The translations under genes and the position numbers were made by a program. The notes under the pieces were generated by a model, which saw only the letters and a program-made list of their open reading frames with translations, was not told the DNA's origin and did no database searches. Source: Mytilus edulis (Eukaryota). Taken from it: a stretch of DNA of 64,000 bases. Numbering within the stretch: position 1 is the stretch's first letter; each line of letters opens with the position of its first letter. The stretch lies in contig NC_092347.1 in the NCBI RefSeq assembly GCF_963676685.1, positions 34,348,001 through 34,412,000 of the forward strand, given 5' to 3'. Below are positions 3,971 through 64,000 of the stretch, in pieces.

Positions 3971-5294
3971 ATCTATTGTGAGTGTGTCCTTCGTCAATCT
4001 GTGTTATCGACTGAGTAAAGATGTGAATGGTGAAGTTTCAATTTTTTTTATTTTCAACTATTTTATACTTTCAGCCAATTCAGGATTAAAAATGTACTTT
4101 GATCTGTTTGAAATTACTGTTTTGATAGTAAAATATTCATTGAAACTAGGGGTGTCAAAAGATATGAAATTTAATACTCGAGTGCTCGGTCATGATACTC
4201 GCGAGAAACCAAATTATAATATGATGACATCGTTTCACATCTTCACGAAAGTCATACGTGTAATTGCAGACATCAAACTGTAGGTCTACAAAATATAACT
4301 TAATCCTTGGTTATGTGTACCGGTCCTCCTTTTTTTGTCAATTGAACAAGATCTAGAAGAACTGACCCTGTTTCTAAGAGTAAATTTGCATGATAGCAAT
4401 TATTTTGTTTGTTCATGTAATGACTCAGAAACCTGCCAATAAAAGCATTAGATATGTTAAAGTCAAGTTCGTATTAATAGCCAATCTGTATCATCTGTTC
4501 CCATGGAGGTAGTAATTTTGATATTACGACTTGTCCCATAATTTGTCAACGAAGTATTTAATTTCAAATTTATTTTATACAAAACGATATCTAATTATAA
4601 ATAAAAGAATAATACAGTTTTTACAAACATTTATCACATTAAATGTACATCTCATTCCAATCACGTGTACAAAAAACTCATAATTAGCAATTAAAGGTAA
4701 GTTTACAGTTAATGTGTTATTGATCCACGAAAGTGTACGTACAAAAACTTTTACAAAAGTTTGAAACATACTTATTGGATCTATTTAATATTTATTATCA
4801 GAATAGAATCGTGTTTCATTAATAAAAGAAGGAGGTGTGCACTTTCATATGCTAATTAAGGTTAGTTGTGGTATGTGAAACTTTAAAAAATGTCGATGGT
4901 CAGTTGAGTTCACTTTGTCCATTTTATTGGGTCATTTTAATCACTCGTATGTCCTGGGCTATATAGTCCCAGTGTATGTCCGAGTAGGGAAATCTATTTG
5001 TTCTTTAAAAATATTCTTTTCGATTGTATTCAATATGACAGAATGCAGACATTTTGATTTATTCACAATCTATCATTTATAATCTGATGTCCATTTGAGG
5101 CTTAATACTCAGCTGCTGTGATAGTCCAGATATGCCGTCTGATATGGGTATATTTTTATTTTGACTTTTTATTGAATTCCACGATCATTGACAGTAAGGC
5201 GTCAAAGCCAAAAAAAAATAACATAGCCTGCCTTGACATCATATTTCATTAAATTACTACTGTATCTGACTGATAATATATAGCCACCTGAATA

Positions 5295-17955: not shown

Positions 17956-18179
17956 ATTTTTCTTCAAATCAGGAGTAGTTATTTTAACGTTACGGATAAT
18001 TTGTAGAATTTCATTTGTACCCTGTCTATAACCGTGACCGAATTATTACCAAAACCCAAAATACACATGCACGTACAGTAGTGCCAAGTATGATTCTCAG
18101 TTATTATAACTATTTTTTGCAAATTTTATAAGTGAACTAATTGAACGAGTAACTTTGCTTTTGACTGTTTCAGAAATAT

Positions 18180-24364: not shown

Positions 24365-25453
24365 CAGGGGCGTAGCCAGGAGAAAACGATGTGCAAGCAA
24401 CTACCGCCGAGCGGAGCGAGGCGAAAAAAATTTTGGACCCTTTACTGCAGAAAAATGTTTTTTTTTTCGGTTTTCGGTCATAGGACGGTTTAAAGAGGAG
24501 CTACATGTAAATAGGACTTATAAACAATTTATGAACGTAAAACTATTAATACTTGAATCTTCTGAATAGAGACAACACATTTTTGAATTACAGAATTTAC
24601 TCAACATTGACCAAAATCTGCTCTTCGGGTCTAAGCAGAAACGAACTTCTCTATTACTTTGTCAACATTCACACTGAAATCCCGATCAATATGCAGTAAT
24701 GCTAGCGATGATAACCTGACGTTGTTAATTGTTGATCGTACATTTGTTTTCAACAGACTTAATAAACTGATAGATGTGCATGATAGCACTCGCGAGATGT
24801 TATAAACCAGCGTACGTGTTGTCAATCGAGCGACCTCCCGATTGAAATTGTTCGCCAAATACATGCCAGGTCATTTTGTATGTCTCAGACAATGTTGAGA
24901 ATTATTCCTTGGTTATATGTCCTACAACACGAGGAAGCAGATACGACAGAAAGAAGCTATTTTCTGATAATACCAGACACCCTCTACTCTCCAATTCCAT
25001 TATCATATGGTCTACGTGTGTGAACGCAAAATATAATGAGACTTTCCAATGCTCTTTTGGCGTGTTTTCATGGTGATTGGCTCTAATAGTCTTTCGAATA
25101 CATCGCCTCGGCATATTTTCAATAATATCAAAGGGTTTCGATAAATCTCGATTGGTACATCGCATCGCAAACAGATAAGCCGTACTCTGTAAAATGTGCT
25201 CCGAAACTACACGTCTTAGACTGAGTATAATAAATTCAAATCTGGTACTGTCCGATTTTTACATGATCTCCAATAAAACGTTTAATTTGAAATGCCGTTA
25301 TTTAATGAAAGTTCATCAATTAAAAAAGTGACAACATATGTGTTTCCTTTAACCATAATTAATTTATAAATTTTTATTTTGGCATTTTTTTTTTTGCTTG
25401 CCGAATCGATGTGCACGCAACTGCGTGTTAGCGTATATGGAGCTACGCGCCTG
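24365..25453 (-). mobile_element. Non-autonomous hAT element with 5-bp TSD (hAT5-like), copy A, 1089 bp
   Basis: TIR CAGGGGCGTAGC/GCTACGCGCCTG; TSD AAGGG; remnant hAT dimerization-domain peptide LKTNVRSTINNVRLSSLALLHIDRD on minus strand. Confidence 0.88.
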
Positions 25454-25704
25454 AAGGGGGGGAGCATAGTTCAATGCAAATCTTTAAAAAATTCTTTACA
25501 GTCAAACCGGCTATAAAGAAAAAATGTAATTTCTGCTAAAAAAAGAAATGTATTTTAGAATATTATATCGAAATAGCTAAATGAGATTTGGATTAGTTTT
25601 GTGCTCAATGGACTATGCCTTTTTCAAGTAGTGACTATTTTAAGATCGAATTTAGGGGGGGGGGGGGCTGCAGATCAAACATATTTTGTTTAGATGCGAC
25701 TTGT

Positions 25705-27003
25705 CAGGGGCGTAGCTAGAAAGAAACGATGTGGAAGCAATTACTGTCGAGCGGAGCGAGGCGAAAAAATTTTGGGACCCTATTATGCAGAATTTTTTTT
25801 TCTTTCGGTTTTTGGTCATAGGACGGTTAAAAAAGGAGCTATATGTAGATAAAATTTATGAATGTAAAACTATTAATAAAGCTTTTGAATATAGTAATAC
25901 ATAAACAACACATATTTGTGATACAGAATTTACTCAAAATTGTCCAAAATCTGCTCTTCGGGTCGGGGCAGAAACAAACTTCTCTATTACTTTGTCAATA
26001 TTCACACGGAAATCCCGATGAATATGCAGTAATGCTAAGTAACTTTCGTTGTTCATTGTTGATCGTACATTTGTTTTCAATTACATACGTAGTACCGTGA
26101 CTGATTGATCTCAGGGCCATCATGGCATGGTAGCACTCGCGAGATGTTATAAACCAGCGTACGTGTTCGGCATCGAGCGACCTCCCAATTGAATTCGTCT
26201 AAATTACATGCTAAGTCAGTTTCGTATGTTTTAGACAATATTGAGATTTGTTCGTTTGTGATATTTCCTACAACACGATGAAGCAGGTACAGCACAAAGA
26301 AGCGATTTTCTGATAACTTGACGCGACTCCACTCTCCAGTTGCCTTATCATATGGTCTATGAACGCAAAAAATGATGAGACTTTCCAATACTGTTTTGGC
26401 GTGGTTGCAGGGTGATTGGCTCCGGTTAGTCTGTCAACCACGTCGCCTCGGCATATTTTCAACGATATCGAAGGGATCTGATAGTTCTAATGCCGATTGG
26501 TACATCTCATTCCAAACTGATGAACTGTACACTGTAAAATGTGCTCCAAAACTGCATATCTTAGACTGAGTATTACAAATTCAAAAGTAAAAATCTTGTG
26601 AAAGATACAAGTAACCTTCCGATTTTGTCATAATTACCAAATTTTTTTTTTATTTTGAAACCAAATGTCGTTATTTAATGATATTTCATCAATTAAAAAA
26701 AGTGACAACCTAGGTGTTTCCTTTAACATTCAATTTATAAATTTTTATTTTGCCATATTTTGCCATTTCTTTTTTTGCATGCCGAATCAATGTGCACGCA
26801 ACTCTTTTTCTGAATGAACAGCTTTATCAACACTTGTAACTATGTTGTCAAACTAATATCCGGGATAGACGGAAAAGACACCAATAGTCTCCGATTCCGA
26901 TTGACCAACTCATCTCTCTATTCTGCTTTTTTTTTTTTTTTTTTTTTTTTGTGAAACGACGTGGATGCACGTGCTGTCATGCCTCCGGGTAGCTACGCCC
27001 CTG
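25705..27003 (-). mobile_element. Non-autonomous hAT element with 5-bp TSD, diverged sister subfamily, 1299 bp
   Basis: CTTGT|CAGGGGCGTAGC ... GCTACGCCCCTG|CTTGT; collinear with 24365-25453 but with many substitutions and indels. Confidence 0.88.
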
Positions 27004-35892: not shown

Positions 35893-37566
35893 AGGAGTAG
35901 GTCCGGTAAGGACTCATTTTGGCCTCAAATTTCAGTTTCAGGCGCGTAGCTCCATATACGCTAACACGCAGTTGCGTGCACATCGATTCGGCAAGCAAAA
36001 AAAAAAATGCCAAAATAAAAATTTATAAATTAATTATGGTTAAAGGAAACACATATGTTGTCACTTTTTTAATTGATGAACTTTCATTAAATAACGGCAT
36101 TTCAAATTAAACGTTTTATTGGAGATCATGTAAAAATCGGACAGTACCAGATTTGAATTTATTATACTCAGTCTAAGACGTGTAGTTTCGGAGCACATTT
36201 TACAGAGTACGGCTTATCTGTTTGCGATGCGATGTACCAATCGAGATTTATCGAAACCCTTTGATATTATTGAAAATATGCCGAGGCGATGTATTCGAAA
36301 GACTATTAGAGCCAATCACCATGAAAACACGCCAAAAGAGCATTGGAAAGTCTCATTATATTTTGCGTTCACACACGTAGACCATATGATAATGGAATTG
36401 GAGAGTAGAGGGTGTCTGGTATTATCAGAAAATAGCTTCTTTCTGTCGTATCTGCTTCCTCGTGTTGTAGGACATATAACCAAGGAATAATTCTCAACAT
36501 TGTCTGAGACATACAAAATGACCTGGCATGTATTTGGCGAACAATTTCAATCGGGAGGTCGCTCGATTGACAACACGTACGCTGGTTTATAACATCTCGC
36601 GAGTGCTACCATGCACATCTATCAGTTTATTAAGTCTGTTGAAAACAAATGTACGATCAACAATTAACAACGTCAGGTTATCATCGCTAGCATTACTGCA
36701 TATTGATCGGGATTTCAGTGTGAATGTTGACAAAGTAATAGAGAAGTTCGTTTCTGCTTAGACCCGAAGAGCAGATTTTGGTCAATGTTGAGTAAATTCT
36801 GTAATTCAAAAATGTGTTGTCTCTATTCAGAAGATTCAAGTATTAATAGTTTTACGTTCATAAATTGTTTATAAGTCCTATTTACATGTAGCTCCTCTTT
36901 AAACCGTCCTATGACCGAAAACCGAAAAAAAAAACATTTTTCTGCAGTAAAGGGTCCAAAAATTTTTTCGCCTCGCTCCGCTCGGCGGTAGTTGCTTGCA
37001 CATCGTTTTCTCCTGGCTACGCCCCTGAGTTTCATCTGACGAAAAGTTTTGACCACTTTTTAAAGACTTAAGTGTCTATTTCACTTGATTTAATTAGTAT
37101 AAGTGAAAGATTTTAACTGATTTAGTCATTAAAAACGATCCGATTCAAGCTCAAATATGAAAAATCTCTCAAATATGCCAAAAAACGTCACTTTTCAGAT
37201 GGTTTTTGGTAAAAATGAAAGTGGCCGCATCCGTGTTCATCCACAACCTTTATATATGTTATGTATTATCATAAAATACAACTTACATTTCAATATTAAG
37301 GATGAACACGAATACGGCCACTTTCGTTTTACAAGGAAACCGTCTAAAATTTACCTAAAATGATAGAATTTTGAAGATTTCAGTAATTTAGCATGACTTA
37401 ATGGTGCTACAACCCGATATATGTGCATTGTATTGTCAAAACCAGCCCATATATTTGTAGCAGAAGCATTCAACTGTCCAATACATAACTAAAAGTTTAC
37501 ATTTTAACAATTTTGTAAAACTGTTATATTTTGGGGCCAAAAAGGGGTCTTACCGGACCTACTCCT
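35893..37566. mobile_element. Kolobok-like MITE (family of 1393-1974) interrupted by a hAT insertion
   Basis: TIR AGGAGTAGGTCCGGTAAG/CTTACCGGACCTACTCCT; interior is the reverse complement of 1393-1974 once 35939-37027 is removed. Confidence 0.85.
35939..37027 (+). mobile_element. Non-autonomous hAT element with 5-bp TSD, copy B (near-identical inverted copy of 24365-25453)
   Basis: AGTTT|CAGGCGCGTAGC ... GCTACGCCCCTG|AGTTT; 1089 bp; I could see only about two differences from copy A. Confidence 0.9.
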
Positions 37567-38950: not shown

Positions 38951-39402
38951 CTAATGTAGTAGCCACCCAGAAAATGTTGGTTTTCCGTGAACGTTGGTAT
39001 GTATTCTACCATCGCCAGCATATGCTGAATGGTTACGGACATACACCGTATCACCTTTTGACACATGGGCAACAACTGTACCACTAACAGATCCATCATC
39101 TCTACCCTTAGCACGAAGAAATGTGGACCCGTAAACGGAATTGTTAATCATCAGCTCCGTAGAATGTTCGGCTTGATGCACTCGGATGACCCAGACAAAT
39201 ACGTACATCCCTGTTTTTGGACACGTAAAAACTCCAGTTTTGCTGTTGTAGCCGCTTCCTTGATTTGTCTTTGTTACACCAAATACAAGTCTCTAACCAG
39301 TTCTCGGGATCACATTCTTTGACATGTAGGCATGAAAAGCAATAACTCCCGGAATCTCCTTGCTGGCTTCACCTCTAATATTTACAATGACATCATATCC
39401 GC
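38951..39402 (-). pseudogene. C1q-domain-containing gene, exon 2 (globular C1q head) with in-frame TAG
   Basis: Acceptor TTTTGTAG| (phase 1); translation GGYDVIVNIRGEASKEIPGVIAFHAYMSKNVIPRTG*RLVFGVTKTNQGSGYNSKTGVFTCPKTGMYVF...GDTVYV...TFSGWLLH*; premature stop at 39293-39295. Confidence 0.9.
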
Positions 39403-47335: not shown

Positions 47336-49729
47336 TCGTCACATTCTATATGTGCCTATCTCTAGTCGGCAGCCTGTAGTGCAATGTGTGTGTCGTTGGT
47401 TCACGTCTGCCATGTTTTTTTATTCTTCATAAATTAGGCCATTAGTTATCTCATTGTTCACATATTTTATCCAAGGGTCTTTTAAAGCCGACAATACGGT
47501 ATGGATATTTACAATATGCCGCGTTCTAAATCAACCGGAATATAGGAGAGATGTGAATAAATTTAAAAGAGACTACAAAAGTCGACACTTTATATTCAGT
47601 AAATAAACAACATCAGCGTGATCGTATTTGTTTGGTTCCAACCCAAATGAAAAGAGTCGGTTGAAGTATGTGCATGCACAAGCACCGTTGGAAAAAATAG
47701 CAGGGGCGGATCCAGCCATTTTAAAAAGATTCCAACACCCGAACCCCCCCCCCCCCCCCCCCCCCCCCCTTGATCCGCCACTGACTATTGTCATTTGGCC
47801 AGGGAAAACAATCAATGAGATAAATAATTTTATAGAGAGAAATAAATCACTTCGTTAATCGTTAATATTTTTTTTATTGCATAACTTGACTTTTCAAAAC
47901 ATATCTATAACATTTCAAGTTCCACAATGTAAGGTATAGCACATCTATAATGTGTATGATATTGTGCATGGTAGCAGTAGGATAAAAGATTGAACTTTTT
48001 ACGAATATCTCGATATCATAAAAATTATACTGGTCTCTGTGTTTATTTTCATTAATCGATTATTATCTAATACATTTATTTGTACATGTAATTTGTGTGT
48101 TGATTTATTAAGTGTTTTACAATTAATATCATAATGTATATGTCAATATTATTGCATATAAAAAACAACTAAAACGGCAATAAAATTAATCATTTTTACA
48201 ACTTACAAGAATGATATGGTTTGATCTACAGGCTCAGCTAATTATCATCAAGAAGTATAACCGGTTTCGAAAAAGAAATCAGTTAACTTTGAATAAACTT
48301 ATCCTAAAAAGTTATCAATTTAACCCCGTAGCAAGATCTTAAAGTTTGAATATTATTTTCGTCGGTTCTTATATTGATTTTGTTTTCGACAAAATAAAAC
48401 AGAACATGTATGTGTTGCTATATATTTGTGAAAACTTTAAAGAAACACTTTTTTGCATCATAACCCGTTCAAGGCTGTTTGTTAACTGTTGATGAGCTTG
48501 CGTTATCTTTATTGTCATGCAAGTTGAAATGAATAATCTAAAATGCTCATATGCAGAGAGCATGGAGACAGCTACCCAAAAGTTGTTCGTTACCTTGAGT
48601 ACTACCGTCCGACAGTAAAACCGATGTGTATGAGGTATCCGCTACCTGAATTTCTCCTTTTCGGCAGTAAGATCATTCGCTACACGAGCTTACAAAAATA
48701 ATTAGATAATTATGAGTCAGAAAGAGCGTTGTTACAAGGGCATCTTCTACCTGACCATCTCTTGTCGGACAAGAAAAGCGTTGCTTTAGGGCCGGGTTGT
48801 CTTGGGACTTTTTGATGAAGACTGCTACCGTCTGATAGTTATAGTCTTGACACCACGATACAGTGTCTTTGTTGTCCAATGTATTAATTCCAGTTGGAAA
48901 TGATCATCGTTGTGAATAGTTCATTGACATCGCAGTAACTCATTACTAGATAATGTTTTGGTACAATTTCCTACCTCATGTTCACCCCGAGTCAAAATTT
49001 CATAAACTATGCATTAAGACTAGCAGACTACCAACGTTGAGAGTCTATCTTATCTATGATATAAATTGTATAGTTGTTTTTGTCTTGATTTATACATGAA
49101 ATAGTTGCCGCTGCACGATAAGCAAACTGTGACATTATCAGGCAAGAATTATAAAGATAAATTTTTGATAACCTTAATAAAAAATTTCGAAAGTACTGAA
49201 GAGCTGAGTTCAAAGGTTATTGTTTTTATAATTTAATAGAACCTTTGTTAATTGTATTTAATTGGAACATTCGTTTCGTTTGAATGGCAGTTTTAAATTG
49301 TAGAGGGCACAGCCAAAAGTTCCGCCTTAGTGAAATCCTAGATAACGAGGATGGGTTAAACCTTATGAAAGTCAAATATCTAGTTCGTTTTATTTTGACG
49401 AGCATCTTTTTGTTGTTACAGTTGTGGTCCACATTTATATGAAAATTGCAGATAACACTGAATTTGGTTTAACCTTCAATGCAATTAAAATGTAGATCTC
49501 TGAATTCGTTCTCCCCAACTGAATTTTAATCAGAGTGTGTGACCTTCAATGCACGGTAATGAGTTGTATTTTAACTTAAAATAAAGGAAATTATTAAACT
49601 AAAAACATAACTATCTACTTATATAAGTTATTATAATTCGTGAGAAAAAAAATCATCATGCAAGTATGCAGACAAAAATATTCCAGTTTTTGGAAATATA
49701 AATATCTAACATTCTACTCTTATTGTACG

Positions 49730-49956
49730 GGCCAATGAGATTGATCGGCGAAATAAACAAGGTAGCGATTTATTGTTTGTCAAATGACCATCTTGACATT
49801 TATTGGTCTGATTATAATTTATTACAAAAAAAATAATTAGATAATTATGAGTCAGAGACCAGTGTACTTATTTGATCTACCCTATAAAAGGAATCTAGCC
49901 ATAGCATGATTGATCAAACTCTTCAAAGGACTTAATACAAGCGCACACATTTCAAT
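49730..49956 (+). promoter_or_regulatory. Pol II promoter and non-coding exon 1 of the secreted peptide gene
   Basis: CCAAT at ~49732, AP-1 consensus TGAGTCA 49848-49854, TATAAAAG 49883-49890, Inr-like TCA ~30 nt downstream, donor CAAT|GTAAGT at 49956/49957. Confidence 0.65.
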
Positions 49957-50227
49957 GTAAGTATTAATTTTCTGTGCTCTGGATTATGAGTTCTTTAAAT
50001 GATTTCATTTTTTCATACTTTCATTTCAATTACTCTCTTACACTATCTGAACACACATAAAAAGTAGTTTTAAAAGTATTTTTTAAAGTCAAGTTTACAC
50101 CATAAATTAACTGTCATGAATACGTTTATTTTGTTTGCTACACAAAATGGTATTTTGAATAAGAGATGAATCAAACACTTCTCCTCGGTGTCAAAATTTC
50201 ACTTGAAAACCCATGCCATGATATCAA

Positions 50228-50700
50228 GTGATCCGGAAGGATAAGCAGATCCTGTTCCACATATGACACCTGTCGTGTTACTCTTGTAAGTACAAACATG
50301 TTGATCAGTCAAATTCGGTTGATCACATTCGAAGATAAGATGACCGGATTATGGGTTCAATTCGAACATATCAAATTGAATTCTCATCTGATAAACAGAT
50401 TTTCCATAACTCGTGATGGTGTCAGAGTTTTTTGAAGGAACTCTTTGTTTAATAACTTCATTGAAGGTAGTAACCCTATGTGAAAGAAATCAGATAAAAC
50501 ATGCAAGCACTGGAATATCGCTTTAAATGGAGATATATACATGTTGGCTCTGCTTGAATATTGCTACATAGAAAGTAAAAGATTACAAATATGAAACTGA
50601 AATCATCTCCTGTCGCAAAGTATTATTCCGAACAAGCCATCATTACAATTTCTAGGTGTAAGTCAATGTAATCCTTTGATGAAGACTTGACTGTATCTGT
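50228..50700 (-). mobile_element. Decayed Penelope-like retroelement fragment in intron 1
   Basis: Minus-strand degenerate remnants resembling Penelope RT C-terminal motifs (DDFSF..V..F.CSNI, VYIS...RYS, HHEL). Confidence 0.55.
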
Positions 50701-50783
50701 TGTATCCTTTATTACAAGTTCGGTGGAACTAACATTCAGTGCATTATGTTTCAAATACTTTTATTTTTGTTTGACAGCACATC

Positions 50784-51827
50784 ATGTCGATGGCGAGGAG
50801 ATTGTGTATGCTGGTTCTATTGGTTTTGTTTATAATGTCACTGGCGGATGCCTATGTTATATACAGAAGATACTACGCACCAAGATATTACAGATCATAT
50901 GCTCCTAGGTCCATCATTTACACCGACGATCTAGATGATATAGACCCTGTGTATTTTAGAAAAGGTAGGCTGATAATTTGTTTCTCTCCAACAAATATAA
51001 ATAACTGATCAGTTAAAGGTTCTGGATCGCATTAACAAATTATTTACTGTTAAAATAAGTTATCAATATTTGATGTAACAGTACACAAAATTTAATGGAC
51101 AGAACAACCAACTACATCTTACAAACGGGACTGGCTTTCCAACACCATCACAGCATGAAAGACAATACAAATTGTAAATTAGCCGTTCTAACCGGAAAGT
51201 TCAAATGTAAACTTATAATATGCTCTTCTGTAAATAGAGAGAATGCAATTTCCCTTTACGGCTGGAACTGTGCCAGTTTTAGTATGAAGTTTCGTAAAAA
51301 AATATTTACTTGAATGGAAAGTTGATATGCAGTTGCTATTTTATTCAATTTTTGAAAGTTCAAAACATAGGGATGTGCAGCAAATTTTTAACATTTATAT
51401 GCTCCGAACTTTTAAGTTTAAATTGAATTGAATTTGGTACTACCCTCCCTTCACTTTTGATCTTCCTCAGAATTCAATTTCAATGCTATCAATTTGTTTT
51501 ATACTGGTATCCTTCCCAACTTATGTCTCTATGAGACGAAACATAGATTTCATATCTGAGAATCAGTACGGTAACAAAACAAAATATCTCACCAAAAGAG
51601 GCAAAGTTTGTAAAACAGCCGTATTTACAAAGTGCTATGTTTATAGTAGACGCTGAAGGGGATATATCATTTATATGCATACAAGGCTGAAATAATTGAA
51701 ACTTGTCATTTTACGAATTTGAAGGAACTATTATGGTAACAGCAGAGTGTATTCTATTAAGTTTTAGTGAAGAATAATCTTAACCGATATATAAATGAAT
51801 ATTGATTTTTTTTCATTTGAAGGTTAA
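50784..51827 (+). CDS. Small secreted Tyr/Arg-rich peptide precursor, 61 aa; join(50784..50964,51823..51827)
   Basis: Acceptor TTTGTTTGACAG| at 50777; signal peptide MSMARRLCMLVLLVLFIMSLADA; mature YVIYRRYYAPRYYRSYAPRSIIYTDDLDDIDPVYFRKG; donor G|GTAGGC at 50964; acceptor TTTTTTTCATTTGAAG| at 51822; AATAAA at 51945. Confidence 0.75.
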
Positions 51828-52234
51828 TGGATGAAGAAGACACAGAATAATTCATTATCATGGAACATCTCATCACTCTATCACCTGACAGCTTCGTTCT
51901 TCATCTAGTCATGTAAAGATGAAGATATTTATTTTTTTGTATTAAATAAAAAAAATACCTTCAATTTGTTTGAATTTCATTGAACCAGTATTTTCAGTAT
52001 GAAATTATTATGAATATATAAATATATATCTAGTTGAAAAAAAGAGAAAATGATAGATATAAAAAGGAAGATGTGGTATAATTGCCAAATGAGACAACTA
52101 TCCACAAAAGACCAAAATAACACCGACATTAACTAGTTTAGGAAGAGGGTTATAGGAATCATCCGGTCTGTAAGGTAACTTTAGCTCCTAAATAGATGGA
52201 AAGATATTGATGAAAATTCCTAATGTAGAAGTCG

Positions 52235-53168
52235 AATACTTGTCATTTAACCAAGAAAATCCCCATGCACACAACACTTGTCGTTGGACCAAGAAAACCC
52301 CAATGCTACAACACTTGTCATTGAACCAAGAAAAGCATAATGTTACACTTGTCGATGAACCAAAAAAATCCCCATGCTACAACACTTGTCATTGAACCAA
52401 GAAAACCCCAGGCTACAACTCTTGTCATTAAACCAAGAAAAACCCCATGCTACAACACTTGTCATTTAACCAAAACAATCCCCTTGCTTCAACACTTGTC
52501 AACGAAGAAAGATCGCAACCATGCTACAACACTTGTAATTGAACCAAGAAAAAATCCATGCTACAACACTTGTCATTGAACCACGAAAATCCCCATGCTA
52601 AAACACTTGTCATTGAACTAAGACAATCCCTATGCTACAACACTTGTCATGAACCAAGAAAATCCCCATGCTACAACACTTGTCATGAACCAAGAAAATC
52701 CCCATGCTACAACACTTGTCTTTGAACGAAAACAATCACCATGCTACAATACTTGTCATTGAACCAAGAAGTTCACTATGCTACAACACTTGTCATTGAA
52801 CCAAGAAAACCCTATGCTACAACACTTGTCATTGAACCAAGAAATTCACCATGCTGTAACACTTGTCAATGAAAAAAGAAAATTACCTTGCTCTAAACAC
52901 TTGTCAATGAAATAAGAAAATCACCATGCTACAACACTAATCATTGAACCAAGAAATTCACCATAATACAACACTTGTAAATGAAATAAGAAAGTTTAAT
53001 ACAATGCTACAACACTTGTCATTCGACTAAGAAAAATCATCATGCTACAACACTTTTTAATGAAACAAGAAAATTACCTTGCCCTAAAATTTGTCATTGT
53101 ATCAAGAAGATTGTCATGGTTTATTACTCATCATTGAACCAAGAAAATAACCTTCCTACAACACTTGG
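52235..53168 (+). repeat. ~37-38-bp minisatellite, >20 copies
   Basis: TGCTACAACACTTGTCATTGAACCAAGAAAATCCCCA units, degenerating toward the edges. Confidence 0.92.
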
Positions 53169-54733
53169 TGTTAATAAACTAAATAAATCAGATTATAAGG
53201 CATTCATAGTTAAGCTGATCTAGGCTGTCTTATCTTTCAATATATGGAAGAAAATTTGTCCATATTAACAAGTGCATTCCCAGAAATAAGACAATTTATG
53301 TCACTCAGTTAAAGCAACATCACAGGGAGGTGTTATTATATGAAAATCCTCTTGCATGACCAGTGCAGGGGGAAATTGAAATTAAAGTTTCCTTTTTTGC
53401 TGAATGGTAATTCAAATAAGTAACTGAGCAACATATTTTATCGTCAAAACTTAACCCATACATACCAGTCAGAATTTTTATTTTACTACCAGGGTACTGC
53501 TTGCTTGATCATGGATCCATTATGTTTCAACTGACTTTGGCATTCAGTCTCATCCTAGGATTGGTACAAAATAGGCTAGGTGTGTTTTAGTTATAATTGT
53601 CATTGGATTGATGTATGATCCAGGTTAACCCCTGCAGGATAACTTTTGATGTATGATTCAGGTTACCCCCTGCAAGATAACTTTTGATGTATTCCCCACA
53701 TTTCCATTATTCATAACGAAGTAACAAATGTGAGGATACCAATGACAAAAGGAAAATAGTACAGAAATAAAAAAACTCTTCCTTTTATTACAATTATCAA
53801 TGCTAGATTCTGATAATTGAGTTAGAGAAATGCTTTGGGAAAAAATACGGCAATTAAGGTCAAGATAACCAAGTTACAAAGATAAGACTAAATGATATTT
53901 AAAGAATATTTTGATTTGAAAAGAAATTATCTGTAACAAATTGCTAATCTGGTGAATTAGGGAACTAAATCAAACAGACTATATTATAAAATCACTTAGA
54001 TTTGTTGCTTTACCCTGCTTGGACACATTATTCTGACTCCAATCTGTGTTCTTAATCTTAGAAGACAATGGATTGGAGGAGAATCTGTAAATATCAATTT
54101 TAAAAGTCTTTAATTTTACCAGTCCATGATTGAACCCCTTCTACCATACTTCAGGATTCTTATATCAACATGACATGTTTCAGAGTTGTAACAACAGTCA
54201 AAATATAACTTTATAACATTTTATTTAACATCTTTCAATATACAAAATAATGCAGAAAATGAAGGAACTTTTAAACAAAAAAACAGTATTTATTATTAAC
54301 ACTGTTATATTGAAAATAACAAATTACAAATAAGTTGCATATCGTTGAAAAATGTTCATACAGTAATGAAATGACAAATTTCTCCAACTACAAAGCAGTC
54401 TGGATTAAAGATGCTAGGTCAAATGAAAATGTGTATTTTTAAAACAAAGGTATATTTTATTATTTGAGTTGTATTGCATATATAAGGAGTTTACTGGAAA
54501 AATGTGAAAGTCTGCTGATGCTTAACACTTCAAACAATACACTGTCATTTAACAGATCCACTTCCAATGTACAAATTATTGTAAATACCCAGTACCCATA
54601 TCAAAGTAGAAAGTAATAATTCAAAAATTCATTGCACTTGATCTTTTTTTCTGTTCTAAAACCACTTGCACCATCGCTGAAAAACATCAAGCCTACAAAA
54701 AATTCATGACAAAAACTTGTTATATACAATATA

Positions 54734-55082
54734 TCATTCTGTACATCTTTGTCTCTTTGCTGCTGGCTTCTTCTTAGATTTTCGTTTTCCCCTTTTTCTT
54801 TTTGTTCCTTTCTGTTTTCTCTTTCCTTTTCCCTTAAGCTGTTGTTTTTCAAATCTTTTCTTAGCTTTGTCAAACTGAGTTTTAAACCCCTCATTATCAG
54901 ACTGTTTCCAGATTGGTACAAATGATCGAATTGGAGAATTCTGAAGCTCTTCTAAAGTCCAACCCCCTGGTAACTGATTCTCTTTATTTGTAACCTTGTG
55001 GTTAGGTGGAGTTTTAGCTGGGGACCAGTCATATTCATCACTGTATGAAGATTCTTCAGAACTACTTGTTGATTGATTGGCC
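54734..55082 (-). CDS. UIMC1: BRCA1-A complex subunit RAP80-like, terminal coding exon
   Basis: Acceptor CTATTTCAG| (phase 2); contains LQNSPIRSFVPIW..FKTQF plus a basic tail, resembling the RAP80 C-terminal SPIKSFV motif; full join(-): >64000..63102, 61126..61047, 60358..60268, 59500..59378, 58742..58685, 57419..57202, 56425..56386, 55082..54734 with consistent phases. Confidence 0.82.
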
Positions 55083-55609
55083 CTGAAATAGAATGGTATG
55101 CAGGCATTATAACAATGTACTTTTTCAAGATAAAAAAAACCCAAATAATGGCTTTTATGCATGGTTATTTTACCTAAATTCTTCATGATACTATAAATAA
55201 TTTAAGCATTACATGATTGTCCAATCATTCTTCATGAAACTATAAATGTTTAAAGCATAATATGATCGTCCAATCATTAAGATAGTCTCATAAGTTGGGA
55301 TTTGAGTACTCAGAGAAGAAGTTGTATATTAACCGATTTAAAGACATTTTTTTTTTGCACCTCCATAATTTGTCCATTAAGCAAAATTTGTGGTTTTGTT
55401 GAATTCTATTTATAGACATTTCACAAGGTTTGAATATATTTGCCCATTGCAGTAGGCAACTACTGATCTCCAGAAGTCTTTTTTTGGCATACTTGATCAT
55501 TGCCTAATATCTTTTTAACAGATTATCAGAAATCAGATTTCATTCCATTTAAATATTTGTGCATCAGTGTAAATACCCTAATATCAAAATATAAGAAGCT
55601 AATAATGTA

Positions 55610-56086
55610 CAGTCGACTCTCGTTATCTCGAAGTCAGCCGGACTAGAGAAAAATTTCGAGATACACATAGTTCAACTCAAACGAAAACCGGAAGTTTGAC
55701 AGAACATTTTTCAATTAAATTAAAACATTCTTTTTCTTATAAAAGATAATCTTAGGTAAACACTCGTGGAAATAGCATGTCATAAATCAATACAGTGGTC
55801 AGTGACTGGAAATTTAATTACACGTGTATTGTCAGATTAACTCTTCAATCCATTTAAATGCTGGAGGTCATGTTTTGACATATGTGTACTAGTTCGAGAT
55901 AAATAATGAATTTTTAATGCTTTTGTTAACCTTGGGATCGTAAATTTAGTTTGACTCAACCGCAATTTCGACTCATCAGGAGTCGAATTACATACATTTA
56001 TATGGAACAAATTTCAGGACCACATGAAAACTTCGACTCATCTGAAATTTCGAGTCAACCGAGTTCGAAACAATGAGAGTTAACTG
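55610..56086. mobile_element. Tc1/mariner-pogo-type MITE in intron
   Basis: TA|CAGTCGACTCTCGTTATCTCGAA ... TTCGAAACAATGAGAGTTAACTG|TA. Confidence 0.8.
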
Positions 56087-56385
56087 TACTTCTAGAAATT
56101 CTTGCCCTTAAATTTTAAATGACTCTCCCAACAAGCAAAAGACTTGGGTTTCATTCAAACTATGCAATAAATTTGACTCTAAGCAGCCAAAGAAAATTTG
56201 TGTATTCTAACCCAGGACTAATTTAAAGTTTGCTTATCATAACCCATACTATTACCATGTGAGTATGCTTATTTTACAGGTGCAATGAATGTCTTGTCAG
56301 ATTTTTTTTCTTTTTTAAGCTTTTATATTCTTATCTTTTAAAGTTCAGCTAATTAGCTATTTTACATTTCAATACAACTACTTAC

Positions 56386-56425
56386 TTTATAACATCTCTG
56401 AGAGTAACTTTCTCTTCATCACTGC
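56386..56425 (-). CDS. UIMC1: RAP80-like internal exon (40 nt)
   Basis: ATTACAG| ... |GTAAGT; GSDEEKVTLRDVIK; phase 1 to phase 2. Confidence 0.72.
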
Positions 56426-57006
56426 CTGTAATGATAGGGATAAAATTGTCAAAGTAAAAACAAAGAAAAGTCATTTCTCAAAAGTACTCATCAAATCACT
56501 CAATATATTATTAAATGAAGAAAAAAGCTACTACAAGTTAATACATACTAATGTATAATAAAAAAAAATGTCCATAAGAAATACAACACACTGCAAAAAA
56601 AAAAGTAATTATTTTCAGAGCAAGTTATGTAAATCAACAGACATACAACTGTAATCTTTTTCTTTCCATAAAACTCTTCCCCGTCTATTTTTTCTTATCA
56701 TTTTGGTGAATTTGGTCAGGTGGTTTCATAGATGGGGAACATTGACAACAGATTGAGTGTCAAAACCATCATTTATTAATGGGAAACTCTTATTTCTAGA
56801 AGTACTCAACCGATTGCTTTTGAAAATTAGTAGCTGACCATTTGCAAACTTTCGCTATATAAGGGTTCTTCCATGAAAACATATATTTTGGATGGATGTC
56901 AAATACTTATTTGTACAGTAAAGAAGTTAGTGAAATTATAAATTGCGTCTATAAGTGTTTTTCACCATTTCAAAAGTGCCTTCAAAACAGGTTTACCATG
57001 TATGTT

Positions 57007-57122
57007 CAGTGGCGGATCCAGGGGTTGGAACCCCCCATTTTTTTGGGCGATCAATGCATTTGAATGGAGACATGTAGTTGGAACCCACCACCCATTTTAT
57101 TAAATGGCTGGAATCGCCCCTG
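57007..57122. mobile_element. ~120-bp mini-MITE with CAGKGGCG termini and 5-bp TSD; relatives at 3746-3888, 28233-28375, 32846-32943, 47701-47783
   Basis: ATGTT|CAGTGGCGGATCC ... AATCGCCCCTG|ATGTT; the 32846 copy is flanked by AGATT/AGATT. Confidence 0.75.
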
Positions 57123-57201
57123 ATGTTATTTTTCTGAAAAATCTCTGATAACTGACAATTAATTGTGAACCACCACCGTTTAAAATTTGAATATTTTGAA
57201 C

Positions 57202-57419
57202 CTGATGAGTACCCTTCATTTGGCTCCGTTGTCCGTGCTGATCTGGTCGCACGTTTGCGAGGTGAGATCTCCCCAGGTTCTAATATAGAATCCATTCCTC
57301 TTGTTTCAATCTCATGCTGCATCTGTGTAGCTTCATCCAAACATTTCTCCACATGCTGTTCCAACATTTTCTTATTTCTAAATGACTTGTCACAAATATA
57401 GCATTCCATACTAAAAGAC
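57202..57419 (-). CDS. UIMC1: RAP80-like exon with second UBZ-type zinc finger
   Basis: Acceptor TTTATAG|; CYICDKSFRNKKMLEQHVEKCLDE (C2HC); donor CAG|GTTCAA chosen for phase compatibility, so the 3' boundary is less certain. Confidence 0.82.
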
Positions 57420-57527
57420 CTATAAATGATAAGCTAGCATTTTAATTTTCAAGTTTTCCCAATTTTTTTTTTAAGATGCATCTAAAACTCACAAAGCTGT
57501 ATCAAGAGAGACTCAATAAGATCAATA

Positions 57528-58425
57528 CAGTCGAACCTCGTTGTGTCGAACTCGGTTGTGTCGAAAACTCAGATGAGTAGAAGTAATTTCTCGGTAAAAT
57601 TCCTGTTTGCTCAATGCATAATTATCTCTGATGAGTCGAACTCGGTTGATTCGAATACTCGGTTAAGTCGAGTAAATTTTATAGTCCCGTCAAAGTAAAA
57701 TTAATGTAAATTGACCCCAATGTCTCGAACTTCGAAAGTAAGAATTGTCAAAAGATGCAGACCTAATGATAAAAATTTAAGTCGGATGTATTTCTCATGT
57801 CAACTAATCATTTTCAAAAGAGATTAAAGCTGAGTAAACATACTTGTTTGTATAACAGTTAAAATGACATGTTTATGGTGACCGCTAATTAACACCTTTA
57901 TTGATCGTTCAAGCTGAATGTTAGTGTGTTGAACATTTTGCACCCGAGATAAAAACAAAACGAATTTAAATGACACAAGCCAAGATTAAATGAATTGTGA
58001 GATTTAAAACTCATTAATTACTATAGATAAAAGGATTAGGACAATTATAATAAATTCATGATAATTTAATGTAAAGCAGACGGCCTCATCAGAGACCGTT
58101 CAGAACTTGTTTCGTGCCGCGAATGATTTCATAATTTATAGCGACTGACCTTTGTAAATATTTGTGTAGACTATTGATTTTATGTGTGCATGATTTGTAT
58201 CTGTACTTGGGTTTTTAATTATTACGAAGGACCAAAAATGGAGATTGAATACACAATTATAAAGTGTCATATAGAAAAAAAAAGGCACAGTGTTCATTGT
58301 ATCTAGTTTACACAAATCTCATACCGTATTTCATGCATTCAAAATTTATGACGACACACTCGACCTCGGATGAGTCGAATACTTTGGTCCGATCCCTTCG
58401 ACTTTAACACAACGAGGTTCGACTG
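57528..58425. mobile_element. Tc1/mariner-pogo-type MITE in intron
   Basis: TA|CAGTCGAACCTCGTTGTGT ... ACACAACGAGGTTCGACTG|TA, perfect 19-bp TIR. Confidence 0.88.
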
Positions 58426-58684
58426 TATATAATTTGCCTCCTTTCAGTAACTAGCAACATCTGAAGTGGTTATTTTCTTCTTTTTCAACAAGTCTTAACT
58501 TAAGACGAAGAATACTGTTTACATTAATTAAAAGTGTGTAAATTTCAACTAAAAGTTTTACTGGAGAGCAACACTCTGAACATAGATTATGAATTTTAAC
58601 CAATATTACTAAAATATTAGACTTTGCTGACTCTGTTAAAAAACATGTTAATCTTTTAACAGAACTGAACATTAAAATACTTAC

Positions 58685-58742
58685 TTTCTTGGACTTTCTT
58701 CTTCACTTTCTACATCTTCAACAATGAAATCTGCATCTTGAT
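58685..58742 (-). CDS. UIMC1: RAP80-like internal exon (58 nt)
   Basis: TATTTCAG| ... |GTAAGT; DQDADFIVEDVESEEESPRK. Confidence 0.78.
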
Positions 58743-59377
58743 CTGAAATATGAAAACTTGTAAACAAATTGTCTTAAATATCGTCTCTGAGCTCCAACAT
58801 AACATACTGATTTTCTGAACTTTTCACCAGATTTAATAACAAACAGCTAAATGAAAACTTTTATGAATGAAGTTAGACTAAAATACAAATAGGAATAAGA
58901 ATATGTAGCCTTTTAACTCTTATCACATTCAAATATGCTCCTCTAAGCAAGGACATGAATACTCCTTAAAAAATGTCTGTACAATTTCAATGTCCATGAA
59001 CATTTTCTATAGTTTAAGGGTCTTTGTTCAGGCAAAAGTGATAATCAAACCAGATCTGAAGTCATCAATATACACTATGACATCCAAATATGATCACTAT
59101 CACCAAGTACAAAGTCAGAATAACTGTACAGAATGACGGAAAAATACAAGAACAGGCATAGGTAAAACTGTTTGCCTTAGAACGCAACTGACAGGCATAC
59201 AAATTTATCATCATTTTAAAATTTTTATCGAGTCTTGTTTTAAGAATTAATTGAGCAATTTATTTTTCCAGTATGATACTGTAAGATGACAAGAATCTAA
59301 TATAAAACATTTTGTACAATGTTAAAACTATTTCTCTCTTTTTATGATTGAAGTCATTGCAAGACTGTAAAGTATAC

Positions 59378-59500
59378 CTTGTTTCTTGCTTGCTCTTCCT
59401 TGCCCATGTCTTTGGACACCTGATGTAGATTGCTCTAAGTTTCTACCAGCTTGTATCTCTTGTATTTGAACACTATCTGTGGATTCTCTCGAGTTGTCAT
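59378..59500 (-). CDS. UIMC1: RAP80-like internal exon (123 nt)
   Basis: CTTTTAG| ... AAG|GTATAC; DDNSRESTDSVQIQEIQAGRNLEQSTSGVQRHGQGRASKKQ; symmetric phase 1. Confidence 0.75.
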
Positions 59501-59584
59501 CTAAAAGCATGACGTTGAGACACAATAAAAGATCAATGAAATATGAGGCAAGCACACATGATGGGTTGACATTCTCAGTTTTAA

Positions 59585-59674
59585 AATTATACAAGTTTTT
59601 TAATATTATACAAGTTTTTTAATATTATACAAGTTTTTTAATATTATACAAGTTTTTTAATATTATACAAGTTT
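59585..59674 (+). repeat. ~19-20-bp tandem repeat (4-5 copies)
   Basis: AATATTATACAAGTTTTTT repeated. Confidence 0.85.
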
Positions 59675-59859
59675 AACATCAGATCCAAGTTGACTTTCCA
59701 TTACAGAAATAAATATAAAATATCAAGAAGGAGAATCTTTTACAAATATGAAGTTAAACCTGTCTTTTAAACATATTGCAAATGAATATTTAGGAATTGT
59801 AGATTAAACAGAAAGTATAAACAAAATTTCCAGCTAGTTTAAGAACAAAATATATTCAT

Positions 59860-60135
59860 AACAAGAATGTTTCAATAGTTCACGGATTACCTTCCCACTC
59901 GCATTATCATTTTCTATGTTCAGTGGAAATTGGGGTGAAAACTCCAATTTGGCATTAAATTTAGAACAGATCATATCATAGAAAACATGTGTACTAAGTT
60001 TCAAGTTGATTGGACTTCAACTTCATCAAAAACTACCTTGACCAAAAACTAAACATGAAGAGGGACAGACAGACGGACGAACGAACTACTTATGCAATAA
60101 CCAAAAATATAATGCCTATAAATGGGGCATAAAAA
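59860..60135 (-). mobile_element. Helentron-associated (HINE-like) short element
   Basis: Ends GGGGCATAAAAA after a (GACA/GACG/GAAC)n microsatellite; collinear with 61245-62738 once that copy's insertion is removed. Confidence 0.65.
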
Positions 60136-60267
60136 TCCTGTTACAGGGATCATCAGACACAAAGGTAGGAATTTATATAGATTAGCCATGGGATATATTA
60201 TCAATTAAATCTATTTAATACATTCAAACAATGTACTTTTTAAAAGAAGAACTGGCAGTTAACATAC

Positions 60268-60358
60268 CATCCACAGGACCATTACAATCTGCAGCATGGT
60301 TTTCTATCTGATCCTGAGGAAATTGTTTGTTACACAGAGGACACGGTACTGTTATTAT
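60268..60358 (-). CDS. UIMC1: RAP80-like exon with first UBZ-type zinc finger
   Basis: TTTTGTAG| IITVPCPLCNKQFPQDQIENHAADCNGPVD |GTATGT; matches the RAP80 pattern V.CPLC...FP...IE.HA..CNG; missed by the ORF track. Confidence 0.88.
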
Positions 60359-61046
60359 CTACAAAATGATTAATCTATTGAAGCAAACATGTTATATAAC
60401 TTTTCTGTACAAAGTGCATTTGCAGGACACTGAGGATATAGTTTCAACTGTGAGTTTAATGTTGAGAACCCTTATCAAAAACATAGTACAAATAAATAAG
60501 GTAAAATCTCCTCTTTCATTTTAATACCTAAAATGCATATTTTCTTAAATCTTTTAAAATGTTTAAAACGACTGTTAACCTGTTCATCTGACAAAAATAT
60601 ATCACTTTTCATATTACATTATTACAATAAAATAACAGATAAATATTTATGTAATTTCAACAGTTTGATGTAACTTAATTAAGATTGAAATTAATTTCTA
60701 CTAGGCGTCTGCCTGCAGACCGTTCTTTGTATTCCCCTGCTTCATGGGATATAACCATTCATCACAACAAAGCCGATACGATTAGACATGTTTTACAGTT
60801 AAAAATGTTGTCTTGGTTATGTGACTTTATCTAATGTTTATATTCAAAGTATTGATTTTGGTGATATTTATAAAATTCTGACAATTTTTTGTCAACATGA
60901 TATATATCCTAATGTGCAATTAAAATCAGCACATGGCACTGTCGTGTGGGTATTAAATTTGAACTTTTTAATTGATGTTATGAGGCTGAGGTTATGTGTA
61001 TAGAGTTGGGTAGTCTATGGGTATAAGATATTGTAGAAGAACTTAC

Positions 61047-61126
61047 TTTTGGTTGTTTATTTGGTTCAGTCTCTTCATTAGTTAATTGTCTCTTTCTTCC
61101 TTGCTTCTTGCTGTAAGTTCTGATAC
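61047..61126 (-). CDS. UIMC1: RAP80-like internal exon (80 nt)
   Basis: GTTTTAG| GIRTYSKKQGRKRQLTNEETEPNKQPK |GTAAGT; phase 1 to phase 0. Confidence 0.8.
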
Positions 61127-61334
61127 CTAAAACAATCATCAAAATGTACACTATTCATTTTTAAAAAACTTTAGCTCTCTTCTTACAAACATACCATTCT
61201 AATATTTGTCCAGTCACCTTTGTCTGGATTATACTTTTAGGTAAAACAATAATGTGTCCCAAGTACACGGATGCCCAATCTGCACTATCATTTTCTATGT
61301 TCAGTGGACTATGAAAATGGGGTAAAAACTCTTA

Positions 61335-62546
61335 CCGTAGATACTCGCCTATTAGTCGATCCGACTATAAGTCGGATGCCCTTTTCAGCTCCAAATTCTG
61401 AGGATTTAGTCTTGACCCTCGTATAAGTCGGACAAAATTTGGACATTTTTTTTGCAGCTGACAGTTACTGAACGCCGGTAAAACCAATGCAAATCCAGGA
61501 ATTATATTCATTTTCTGCATGAATGTTTGTTTGGTTTGAATTTAGTTGATGTTGATTATGATAATTTATATAGCTGCTAATAATAAAGATGTATTTATTC
61601 CTGTTGTTTTGTTCACTGTTTGATTACAGATTAGCCATGTGTTGTTTACGTAATGCATCAATGATTTTGTAGGGTATGACTAACAACCTATTGTTTTAGA
61701 AAAGCAAACATAAACCAATATGAACCTGAAAAAATTTAAAGTCAATCAATATTTTTCACAGCATACATAACTCAGTGTTAAAAGAGCATGTACACTTCAT
61801 AATTCTTATCATATTGTGATGATTAAAGGATTAAAAAAATTAATTGAAGCTAATCAACTATATATTGAAATAACTTCCATCTCATTAGTGTCATCTGTTC
61901 ACCTATCACTGATATTTTTCACACCTTTAGTGAATACAACTCTTTGTCTCTTAATTAGGGGTTATCAATGGATTATATTGGCTTGCCAATCAATTTTGTA
62001 ATCTTTTTGTTTACCAGAGACATTTTAATGAATAATATTTTGATCTTGGGAATGAATCTTAAAATTATTTTTGATTATTGTATGATTTATAAGTATTAAA
62101 TTGATATCATGATATCACAATAATGACACAATAACTCCGCTGAATACATCCTTTTACATAGTTGGTACATTGTTATCTCGTTTTCATTTTTGGTTCTTGG
62201 CTCTTTCTTTTGGGTTTATGCACAAACCATTTGACCATGAAAATCAATACACAAACCGGAAACAGTCGAAAATTCAACACAAATTGACAGAAAAAAAGAT
62301 AACAAAGAACAAATAAAACACAAAGACAGTATTGTGGTCATTTATTTTCAACACAAACTTTGTATTCAAGGATTTATGTAGGTTTGGCAATCACCAACGT
62401 AGTTTTGAACAGGAAATTCACTCCTGACCACTTTTCTCAAGCTTGGATTTTTCCTCTGGTCTCGGGATCTCGCTTATAAGTCGGTACCCCTCTCTGGATT
62501 CTGAATTTTACTCCCAAACTTTCGACTTATAAGCGAGTATCTCTGG
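61335..62546. mobile_element. TA-flanked Tc1/mariner-pogo-like non-autonomous element nested in a HINE-like element (61245-62738)
   Basis: TA|CCGTAGATACTCGCCTATTAGTCG ... CGACTTATAAGCGAGTATCTCTGG|TA; host element resumes on both sides. Confidence 0.75.
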
Positions 62547-63101
62547 TACTTTGGCATTAAAACTAGAAAGATCATATCATAGGGAACATGTTAACTAAGT
62601 TTCAAGTTGATCGGACTTCAACTTCATCAAAAACTAACTTGAACAAAAACTTTAACCTGAAACGGGACAAACAGACAAACAGACGAATGGAGGCACAGAC
62701 CAGAAAACATAATAATGCCCATATTTATGGGCATAAAAATTGGAAATTTAATTTTACTTTTTTTATAAATTGAATCAGCTAAGATATTAAATACATTTTA
62801 AATTCTTAGTATCATGTATATCTGCATATAAATATTCCCCTTATATAATGCTAGGGAAGTGGTTTTTTTTCCTGAACTGCTATGCTATGCTGTATTACTA
62901 GGTTACATGTACTGTAAAAAATTTACCAATGAGACCTAAAAAAATACCTGTGTTTCTTCTAACCCTTCCTACCTTATAGATTTCTTTGCTTATTTTTTAA
63001 CAAGCACACTTGAAGTCCAACGGCTTCTTATTTTTAAACCAGACAAAAATGTTAGCAGAAACACAAGTATTGTTTTTCAGGACTAATAAAAGCTAAGTTA
63101 C

Positions 63102-64000
63102 CTCCTGTCTTCATATTGATCTGTTGTATATCATCCACTGTAACATCACTGGTCGGTTGGAATCTGTGTGTTTCTGTATCTAAGTCTTCGTCATCACCAA
63201 AAGATTTATTCCTGATATGTGAACCTTGAGGATCATCGTCATTCTTAATTTTACTACTTGAACTTTTATTGCCTGACCCTAGCTTGAACAAGTCACTCAT
63301 ATGTCCAAACATTCTTGACTTGAGGGTTGACTGCTGCCCTACAGGCTCTACATTCTTCACAGTGCTCTGCGATGGATGGATTACTATTATTTTTGCGGTC
63401 TTTGTCTTGCCAATCTGTTTTTGACTTACTTGACTAGTACTATCCTCCTTTTGTTTTGGTAAGATTGGTCTGAAATTTGATTGTGTAGAAGTGCTTTCAA
63501 CATTGCGAGAAATATTTTGTGAGAGTGTTGCCCTTTCAAGGTTTGATCCGTTTCTTGAATTCTGTGATAGATACTGAACACTGTCATCATCAACTGTATC
63601 CAAATTAAAACTGGACTTACTGACTGGTACCCTAGCTCGTTTTTCTATCATAGAACATAACTGTGTTGAGTACAATTGTCCGTCTGCATCTAATAGCACA
63701 TCTGATTTTTGACTGAGGCCACCAAGGGATAATTCAGGAGATCTACTTAAGGCTTGGTCAGGATTTAACAAATTGTTCATGTCGTCCGACTTGAAACTTT
63801 CCACACTACCTGTGCTTAAGTCACTAGCATGCCTCTTAAGTGATCCTCGTGTAGCTTTCTTTACATTTGTTGTCGGGTCACTGATATTTGACTTATTCCT
63901 TGAACTTTTAGTTTCCAGCTTTTCTGGCACTTCACTATTTCCTTCATTATTCTGCTTTTTTAATTTCATGTTTCTTTTACCTTTTCCAACAAATTTATCA
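63102..64000 (-). CDS. UIMC1: RAP80-like large Ser/Lys/Asp-rich disordered exon (continues beyond window)
   Basis: Frame open from the window edge; low-complexity protein with several SQ/TQ sites; phase-1 donor GAG|GTAACT at 63102/63101 joins the 61126 exon. Confidence 0.75.

Follow-up and report, generated by a model that had tools for sequence, protein, structure and literature searches.

A predicted single-copy gene for a small secreted Tyr/Asp peptide of an unnamed conserved family in Mytilus edulis

The peptide gene and its surroundings

The window (the whole stretch of M. edulis DNA that was analysed, 64,000 nt of contig NC_092347.1) was found to carry, between 49732 and 51965 on its + strand, a compact predicted gene for a small secreted peptide with the following features.

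49732-49736, + strand: CCAAT box, putative promoter element from a motif scan, absent from the list of the preliminary description
49829-49856, + strand: 28-nt element with an AP-1-type site, TGAGTCA (49848-49854), putative regulatory role
49883-49889, + strand: TATA box, TATAAAA, read in the sequence
49915-49956, + strand: predicted non-coding exon 1, start placed by TATA spacing and an initiator-like motif at 49913
49957-50777, + strand: intron 1, GT..AG, donor GT at 49957-49958 (GTAAGT), acceptor AG at 50776-50777
50778-50964, + strand: exon 2, with 6 nt of 5' UTR, the ATG at 50784 and the entire precursor minus its last Gly
50784-50852, + strand: predicted signal peptide of 23 residues, read from the sequence and kept in 4 of 4 relatives
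50853-50963, + strand: exon-2 part of the predicted mature peptide, a Tyr-rich N-half followed by an Asp patch and a last part with Tyr and the terminal residues
50965-51822, + strand: intron 2, phase 1, donor GT at 50965-50966, acceptor AG at 51821-51822, containing repeats and haplotype-variable stretches
51469-51470, + strand: strong cryptic acceptor by sequence scoring, inside a haplotype-variable repeat
51823-51965, + strand: exon 3, completing the Gly codon, with TAA at 51825-51827 and the 3' UTR, end putative
51945-51950, + strand: polyadenylation signal AATAAA, read in the sequence

The anatomy proposed in the preliminary description (TATA box, non-coding exon, coding exon, terminal exon and AATAAA) was recovered with every motif in place, and under the modelled splice the last exon does add just a Gly and the stop. 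The 28-nt promoter element has an exact second copy at 48694-48721, 1135 nt apart and upstream of the promoter; a decayed upstream paralogue at 48.7 kb was considered and rejected, the match being confined to the 28-nt element.

Splice sites were scored with weights taken from general knowledge. The intron 2 donor ranked in the top 0.23% of 3513 GT dinucleotides on the + strand and the intron 2 acceptor in the top 3.1% of 3075 AG dinucleotides, and the cryptic acceptor at 51469-51470 outscored the modelled one (8.7 vs 2.4); its use was computed to place 29 residues where the terminal Gly would stand. Both strands of the window were then scanned for an acceptor followed by an ATG, a signal-like N-terminus and a frame open to a donor. 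Exon 2 was the single hit, and the same scan gave 1 hit in 40 x 128 kb (5.12 Mb) of composition-matched order-4 Markov sequence; the scan thresholds were fixed after the exon had been seen, so this chance estimate is a rough control. Directly after the stop, exon 3 holds an acidic run in another frame (51824-51850), which may be chance in a GA-rich UTR or a relic of an anionic extension.

The predicted precursor has 61 residues, a 23-residue signal peptide followed by 38 further residues (37 from exon 2 plus the Gly), with cleavage after residue 23 judged by eye and from conservation in the family. The counts given earlier for the mature part (38 residues, 9 Tyr, 6 Arg, no Cys) were reproduced in the translation, which also has 5 Asp and contains the YAPR repeat as well as the DDLDDID patch. 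The N-terminal 19 mature residues have a pI of 10.1 and a charge of about +5, two conserved Y-R-x-Y units lie in the Tyr-rich N-half, and the 37-mer has 0 Gly (0-2 internal Gly across the family). There is no dibasic site between the basic and the acidic part; the acidic patch precedes an RK, after which one residue follows. In an AlphaFold model of mean pLDDT 67 the signal helix and a short extension were confident and residues 35-55 fell below 50, and the mature peptide is predicted to be disordered. A terminal Gly is the established amidation signal for PAM. A precursor ending in Gly is seen under the modelled splice and in the relative P0002 (described below), with the cryptic acceptor as competitor, and C-terminal amidation through this Gly is probable.

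Exon 2, exon 3 and the promoter DNA were each searched against the 1.37-Gb genome (G000), where each matched only its own locus. With protein queries (the window peptide and the relatives P0003 and P0004) the same locus was the sole match at a significant E-value. The gene is single-copy in this genome. Weak matches at four other loci (L002, L003, L008, L009) were set aside as chance, lacking either a start codon ahead of the hydrophobic stretch or any family motif. No paralogue was found in 100 kb on each side, with a best E of 0.16 for the family profile, and a relaxed signal-exon scan of the same flanks gave 1 unrelated hit; this scanner missed one C1q signal exon and is not fully sensitive. 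The other features of the window were as follows.

11960-13980, - strand: broken reverse-transcriptase-like frames in three pieces, LINE-type by eye
18165-19346, + strand: glycosyltransferase family 10 (fucosyltransferase) in a single ORF, both Pfam domains above cut-off
38951-39292, - strand: C1q-domain exon, identified by Pfam
54734-64000, - strand, continuing into L021: convergent multi-exon gene with two zinc-finger-like exons and a basic tail, weak zf-C2H2 and zf-C2HC/UBZ matches below cut-off

A second secreted C1q-like gene was seen by eye just upstream of the window (L020, about 3260-4550, + strand). The convergent zinc-finger gene is one that we take to resemble RAP80/UIMC1, an identity for which a PDB search gave no confirmation. 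Exons in the flanks (L011-L019, L028) presumably resemble huntingtin, peptide N-glycanase, alpha-methylacyl-CoA racemase and DNA polymerase gamma, and by these names, taken from the translations, the neighbourhood resembles an ordinary housekeeping-type one. A 1.09-kb element is present in inverted copies (24365-25455 and 35937-37027, 99.8% alike) and in a third, diverged copy (25705-26803), and a 37-nt tandem array of about 25 copies (52238-53167) lies just downstream of the peptide gene. Rfam gave 0 matches over 48000-55000.

Relatives and what they conserve

Three relatives were recovered with HMMER at E<=0.001 among 1,835,955,588 representative sequences, and a fourth was obtained by profile search from 3 candidates. 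A word-index protein search with the 60-mer returned no candidate, and a search for longer forms, with 457 candidates, gave only P0001 and P0002, which had been found before. The family rests on these four relatives, and only P0002 has a named species.

P0002 (VDI49699.1; UniRef100_A0A8B6FIB2) is a 'Hypothetical predicted protein' of Mytilus galloprovincialis in a record which we take to stem from the genome annotation project of that species. It is identical to the window translation at 54 of 60 aligned residues and, judged from this alignment, is the orthologue of the window gene. The alignment begins exactly at 50778, the predicted exon start at the intron 1 acceptor, and runs to the exon-end Gly, where P0002 stops; exon 2 and the terminal Gly were thus drawn in the same way by an independent annotation. 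The gene models of that genome combine transcript and ab initio evidence, according to the accessible part of PMC7653742. The P0002 model is not reliable throughout: it has 141 residues, with about 78 foreign residues ahead of the signal, and a small secreted peptide is therefore not recognisable from the record.

P0001 is a read-through frame without a name, with 92-93% identity to the window, and P0003 and P0004 have 41-55% identity, depending on the method. All three lose similarity at that same Gly, as would be expected if the frames read on into an intron at a shared position; for P0003 and P0004 this reading is drawn from the proteins. Mismatches between P0001 and the window were counted at 5 of 61 positions in the exon and 17 of 84 in the flanking intron frames (Fisher p 0.06, two-sided), which weakly suggests purifying selection on exon 2. 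In the protein collections searched, the gene is represented only by a single hypothetical model, wrongly fused, and by three read-through frames without names, and tissue and proteomic studies that rely on annotation would therefore be likely to miss it.

Of the columns in the four-way alignment, 22 are invariant, and 15 of these belong to the mature part. Both distant relatives (P0003 and P0004) have an aromatic residue at 8 of the 9 mature Tyr positions of the window and keep 4 of its 5 Asp, and each of them keeps 2 of its 6 Arg. Tyr counts in the four aligned sequences are 9, 9, 9 and 8, net side-chain charges +2, +1, +1 and -1, and mature pI values 9.06, 8.21, 8.25 and 5.36, with P0004 last and lowest in charge and pI. 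The mature N-half is conserved at least as well as the signal (10/18 vs 8-11/21). None of the 4 relatives has the RK that precedes the Gly, and a convertase site there was rejected as a processing site of the family because it is not conserved. A 9-residue period was nominally significant in 1 of the 4 sequences (p 0.027, uncorrected).

The second half of the earlier label 'Tyr/Arg-rich' is true of the window allele; the family is one of Tyr and Asp. The signal, the cleavage site and the exon-end Gly are kept in the relatives, supporting a real secreted-peptide gene as far as sequence can, and we consider it very likely that the gene is real and belongs to an unnamed conserved family of small secreted Tyr/Asp peptides.

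Domain, structure and literature collections were also searched. Pfam gave for the window peptide only Coleoptericin (E 0.028, below cut-off and mostly over the signal) and for P0002-P0004 nothing above cut-off, and PDB sequences gave 0 matches at E<=10. The best scores in the ESM Atlas (0.83 and 0.84) were to unnamed clusters and are leads only, and 273 pattern matches in JGI metagenomes yielded none that was confirmed. Full-text searches for motifs, accessions and composition found no description, their one listing being a paper on an ant hormone and most subscription journals and several supplements being outside the search, and the peptide motifs had 0 occurrences in supplements of PMC7971044 (5 files), PMC5577615 (1 file) and PMC3896809 (9 of 16 files).

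Possible roles of the peptide

Our preferred reading, to which we assign a probability of roughly 0.4, is that the product, disordered and probably amidated, serves as a small Tyr/Asp linker or matrix peptide in some extracellular material, for instance shell matrix, periostracum or byssus. A building material is likelier than an antibiotic peptide because the distant relatives keep the Tyr and the acidic patch and not the positive charge. In the mechanism proposed, the three exons would be spliced, the signal would be cleaved after residue 23, and PAM would remove the terminal Gly to leave an amide. Release would be as a single uncut chain of 34-37 residues, a step suggested by the lack of a conserved dibasic site. 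Tyrosinase would then convert the regularly spaced Tyr to DOPA or cross-link them, the YR units would attach to an organic scaffold or to one another, by stacking or by binding, calcium or mineral would be bound by the Asp patch, and the opposite halves would favour condensation before secretion. The DOPA-type adhesive role suggested in the preliminary description survives in this general form because Tyr is what the family conserves, and falls as a likeness to mfp-3.

A precedent for bipartite linkers with a basic and a Tyr-rich part is provided by the KRMP shell proteins (accessible part of PMC3120837), and in the M. edulis mantle many genes induced by repair are unannotated, secreted or disordered, as given in the part of PMC8194122 consulted. 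Known Tyr-rich matrix and foot proteins of mussels and oysters are Gly-rich in the accessible parts of PMC7018726 and PMC3896809, and the near absence of internal Gly (0-2) would by this comparison count against a matrix role. A 35-residue, Cys-free, nearly Gly-free Tyr/Asp peptide that keeps 41-55% identity is easy to synthesise, and would show whether cross-linking of the DOPA type, or binding of mineral, can do without the Gly-rich scaffold that known mussel materials have. Should the product instead be a hormone or a sister of the myticalins, the bivalves would gain a new peptide family; secreted orphan peptides are frequent in mussels, and this limits the surprise of another one.

Conserved Tyr beside Asp suits sulfotyrosine signalling or inhibitor peptides equally. 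The product may also be read as a conserved amidated hormone or paracrine peptide of 34-37 residues, possibly Tyr-sulfated beside the Asp patch and acting on a receptor. Its sulfation context and size suit a hormone, and a single copy among housekeeping-type genes, a mature part conserved as much as the signal, and a terminal Gly with Tyr beside Asp in all relatives speak for such a role. In amidated neuropeptides, however, the C-terminal residues are usually the most conserved, whereas in this family they vary most (FRK in the window, VIK in P0002, then YIV and YIM before the Gly), and 4 of the 6 differences from P0002 fall in the C-half. No such peptide appears in the accessible part of an oyster neuropeptide survey (PMC8398477). 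Taken together, a signalling role seems unlikely.

The preliminary description had also put forward an antimicrobial candidate. Under this reading the product would be a linear Pro/Arg/Tyr antimicrobial or mucosal defence peptide like myticalin A, its basic N-half acting on microbes and its acidic half masking that activity until cut off. The basic N-terminal 19 residues, 19/19 identical to P0002, would suit this, as would the AP-1-type site in the promoter and a gene layout as in myticalins (accessible parts of PMC5577615 and PMC12294457). The reading is weakened because the cationic character is not conserved, Arg being kept at 2 of 6 positions and the net charge falling to -1 in P0004. Further points against it are that no dibasic site precedes the acidic part, that there is no 35-75-residue anionic extension, that the RK before the Gly is absent in the relatives, that the signal is unlike the published myticalin consensus, and that no paralogue was found within 100 kb on either side, whereas myticalins are clustered. 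We regard an antimicrobial role as doubtful.

Of 24 runs listed, the contigs of four were compared with the locus: X1 and X6 (RNA by guess), X8 (on record as RNA) and X9 (organism B). These runs have the larger word shares, favouring RNA that holds introns; for an mRNA that is purely spliced a word share of about 0.135 is expected, and the shares of 0.13-0.14 in X11-X14 come close to that value, a likeness that is no evidence of splicing. Unspliced contigs from two studies ran through both ends of exon 2 (X1, 50252-51427; X6, 50252-51249; strand not given by the contigs), pieces of X8 mapped to exon 2 and both introns, and an X9 contig joined 51326 to 51572, skipping the stretch with the cryptic acceptor. 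None of the contigs listed for the four runs has a joint at the predicted junctions or covers exon 1 or exon 3, which is no evidence against splicing because contigs show presence, not absence, and a filter drops records. The unspliced contigs count against a simple three-exon model in those samples, and three-exon splicing of the gene is predicted. The RNA over 50252-51427 may be antisense (e.g., read-through from the convergent gene), sense RNA with retained introns, or DNA. TTTATT at 50125 would read as a poly(A) signal on the minus strand, and antisense RNA over the peptide gene is possible.

A gene that is silent or decaying in this lineage, or differently spliced (giving RNA that is unspliced or antisense, or joined at the cryptic acceptor), would not yield the amidated 37-mer. 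Such an outcome would agree with the unspliced X1 and X6 contigs, the higher score of the cryptic acceptor, the convergent zinc-finger gene that ends at 54734 on the minus strand, and the 6 of 60 aligned residues that differ from P0002. We nevertheless hold it to be improbable: the frame and signals are intact, substitutions and two indels are listed for the introns but no difference for exon 2 in X1, X6 or X8, the P0002 model likewise stops at this Gly, and the cryptic acceptor sits in the stretch that the X9 contig skips. A disordered, Cys-free protease inhibitor binding through an acidic sulfotyrosine tail, by analogy to known inhibitors with such tails, would suit the predicted disorder and the conserved Tyr flanking the Asp patch, and is very improbable given no Pfam match above cut-off and no PDB sequence match at E<=10.

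Comparison with named families

In the accessible parts of PMC5577615 and PMC12294457, myticalins have three exons, a non-coding exon 1, the ATG at the start of exon 2 and a phase-1 second intron. Three exons, a non-coding exon 1 and a phase-1 intron 2 are thus common to myticalins and the window gene, whose structure is predicted, and a Cys-free chain, Pro/Arg/Tyr content (as in myticalin A) and a putative amidation Gly are shared with myticalins and modiocalins. As far as the same accounts go, the differences are several. The signal of the window peptide, compared by eye, is unlike the published consensus (PMC5577615); myticalins have a Lys-Arg site followed by a 35-75-residue anionic extension, whereas the window peptide has neither and carries its acidic patch inside the mature chain; and the mature pI is above 11 in myticalins and 5.4-9.1 in the window family. 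Myticalins are clustered and hypervariable, the window gene is single-copy and conserved, and a mature N-half conserved as much as the signal or more is the reverse of the myticalin pattern in these sources. No paralogue or similar signal exon of the kind expected in a tandem myticalin cluster was found in the window or in 200 kb of flanks with the not fully sensitive scanner, and no myticalin was among the protein-search matches.

It would be a long shot that the gene is a single-copy sister of the myticalin ancestor, sharing its layout and Pro/Arg/Tyr core, with the acidic piece kept in an uncut amidated peptide and the Tyr switched by DOPA formation or sulfation. If this were true, the linear antimicrobial peptides of mussels and a structural or signalling peptide would go back to one origin, and the acidic run of exon 3 would be left over from an anionic extension since lost. 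Small secreted genes often have a non-coding first exon, and an intron can have any of three phases, of which phase 1 is one.

According to the accessible part of PMC7018726, mfp-3 has 15-22% Gly, is Tyr-rich, occurs in many variants and has no charge cluster; its role is described in PMC12817120, also consulted in part. On these accounts the window peptide is like mfp-3 in being small, secreted and Tyr-rich, and differs from it in its 0-2 internal Gly, its clustered Asp (5) and its single copy. No named mfp was among the sequence-search matches. The earlier statement that the peptide could be assigned neither to the myticalins nor to mfp-3 agrees with these comparisons, in which signal, dibasic site and extension, pI and clustering separate it from the former, and Gly content and charge, sequence similarity and gene number from the latter. 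Judged from its sequence, it is a member of none of the myticalins, mfp-3 and the KRMP/shematrin proteins.

Prismalin-14, with PIYR repeats and Asp-rich ends, is likewise a small secreted block protein and a possible analogue. KRMPs and shematrins have Gly/Tyr repeats and a basic tail (accessible part of PMC3896809); compared with them as described there, the window peptide is much shorter and is without the Gly/Tyr repeats, the Lys/Trp domain, an RKKKY-type end or sequence similarity. The likeness to KRMPs and shematrins is one of plan, these being, in the accessible parts of PMC3120837 and PMC3896809, small secreted block proteins that combine a Tyr-rich cross-linking part with a charged part and are proposed to link organic frame and mineral.
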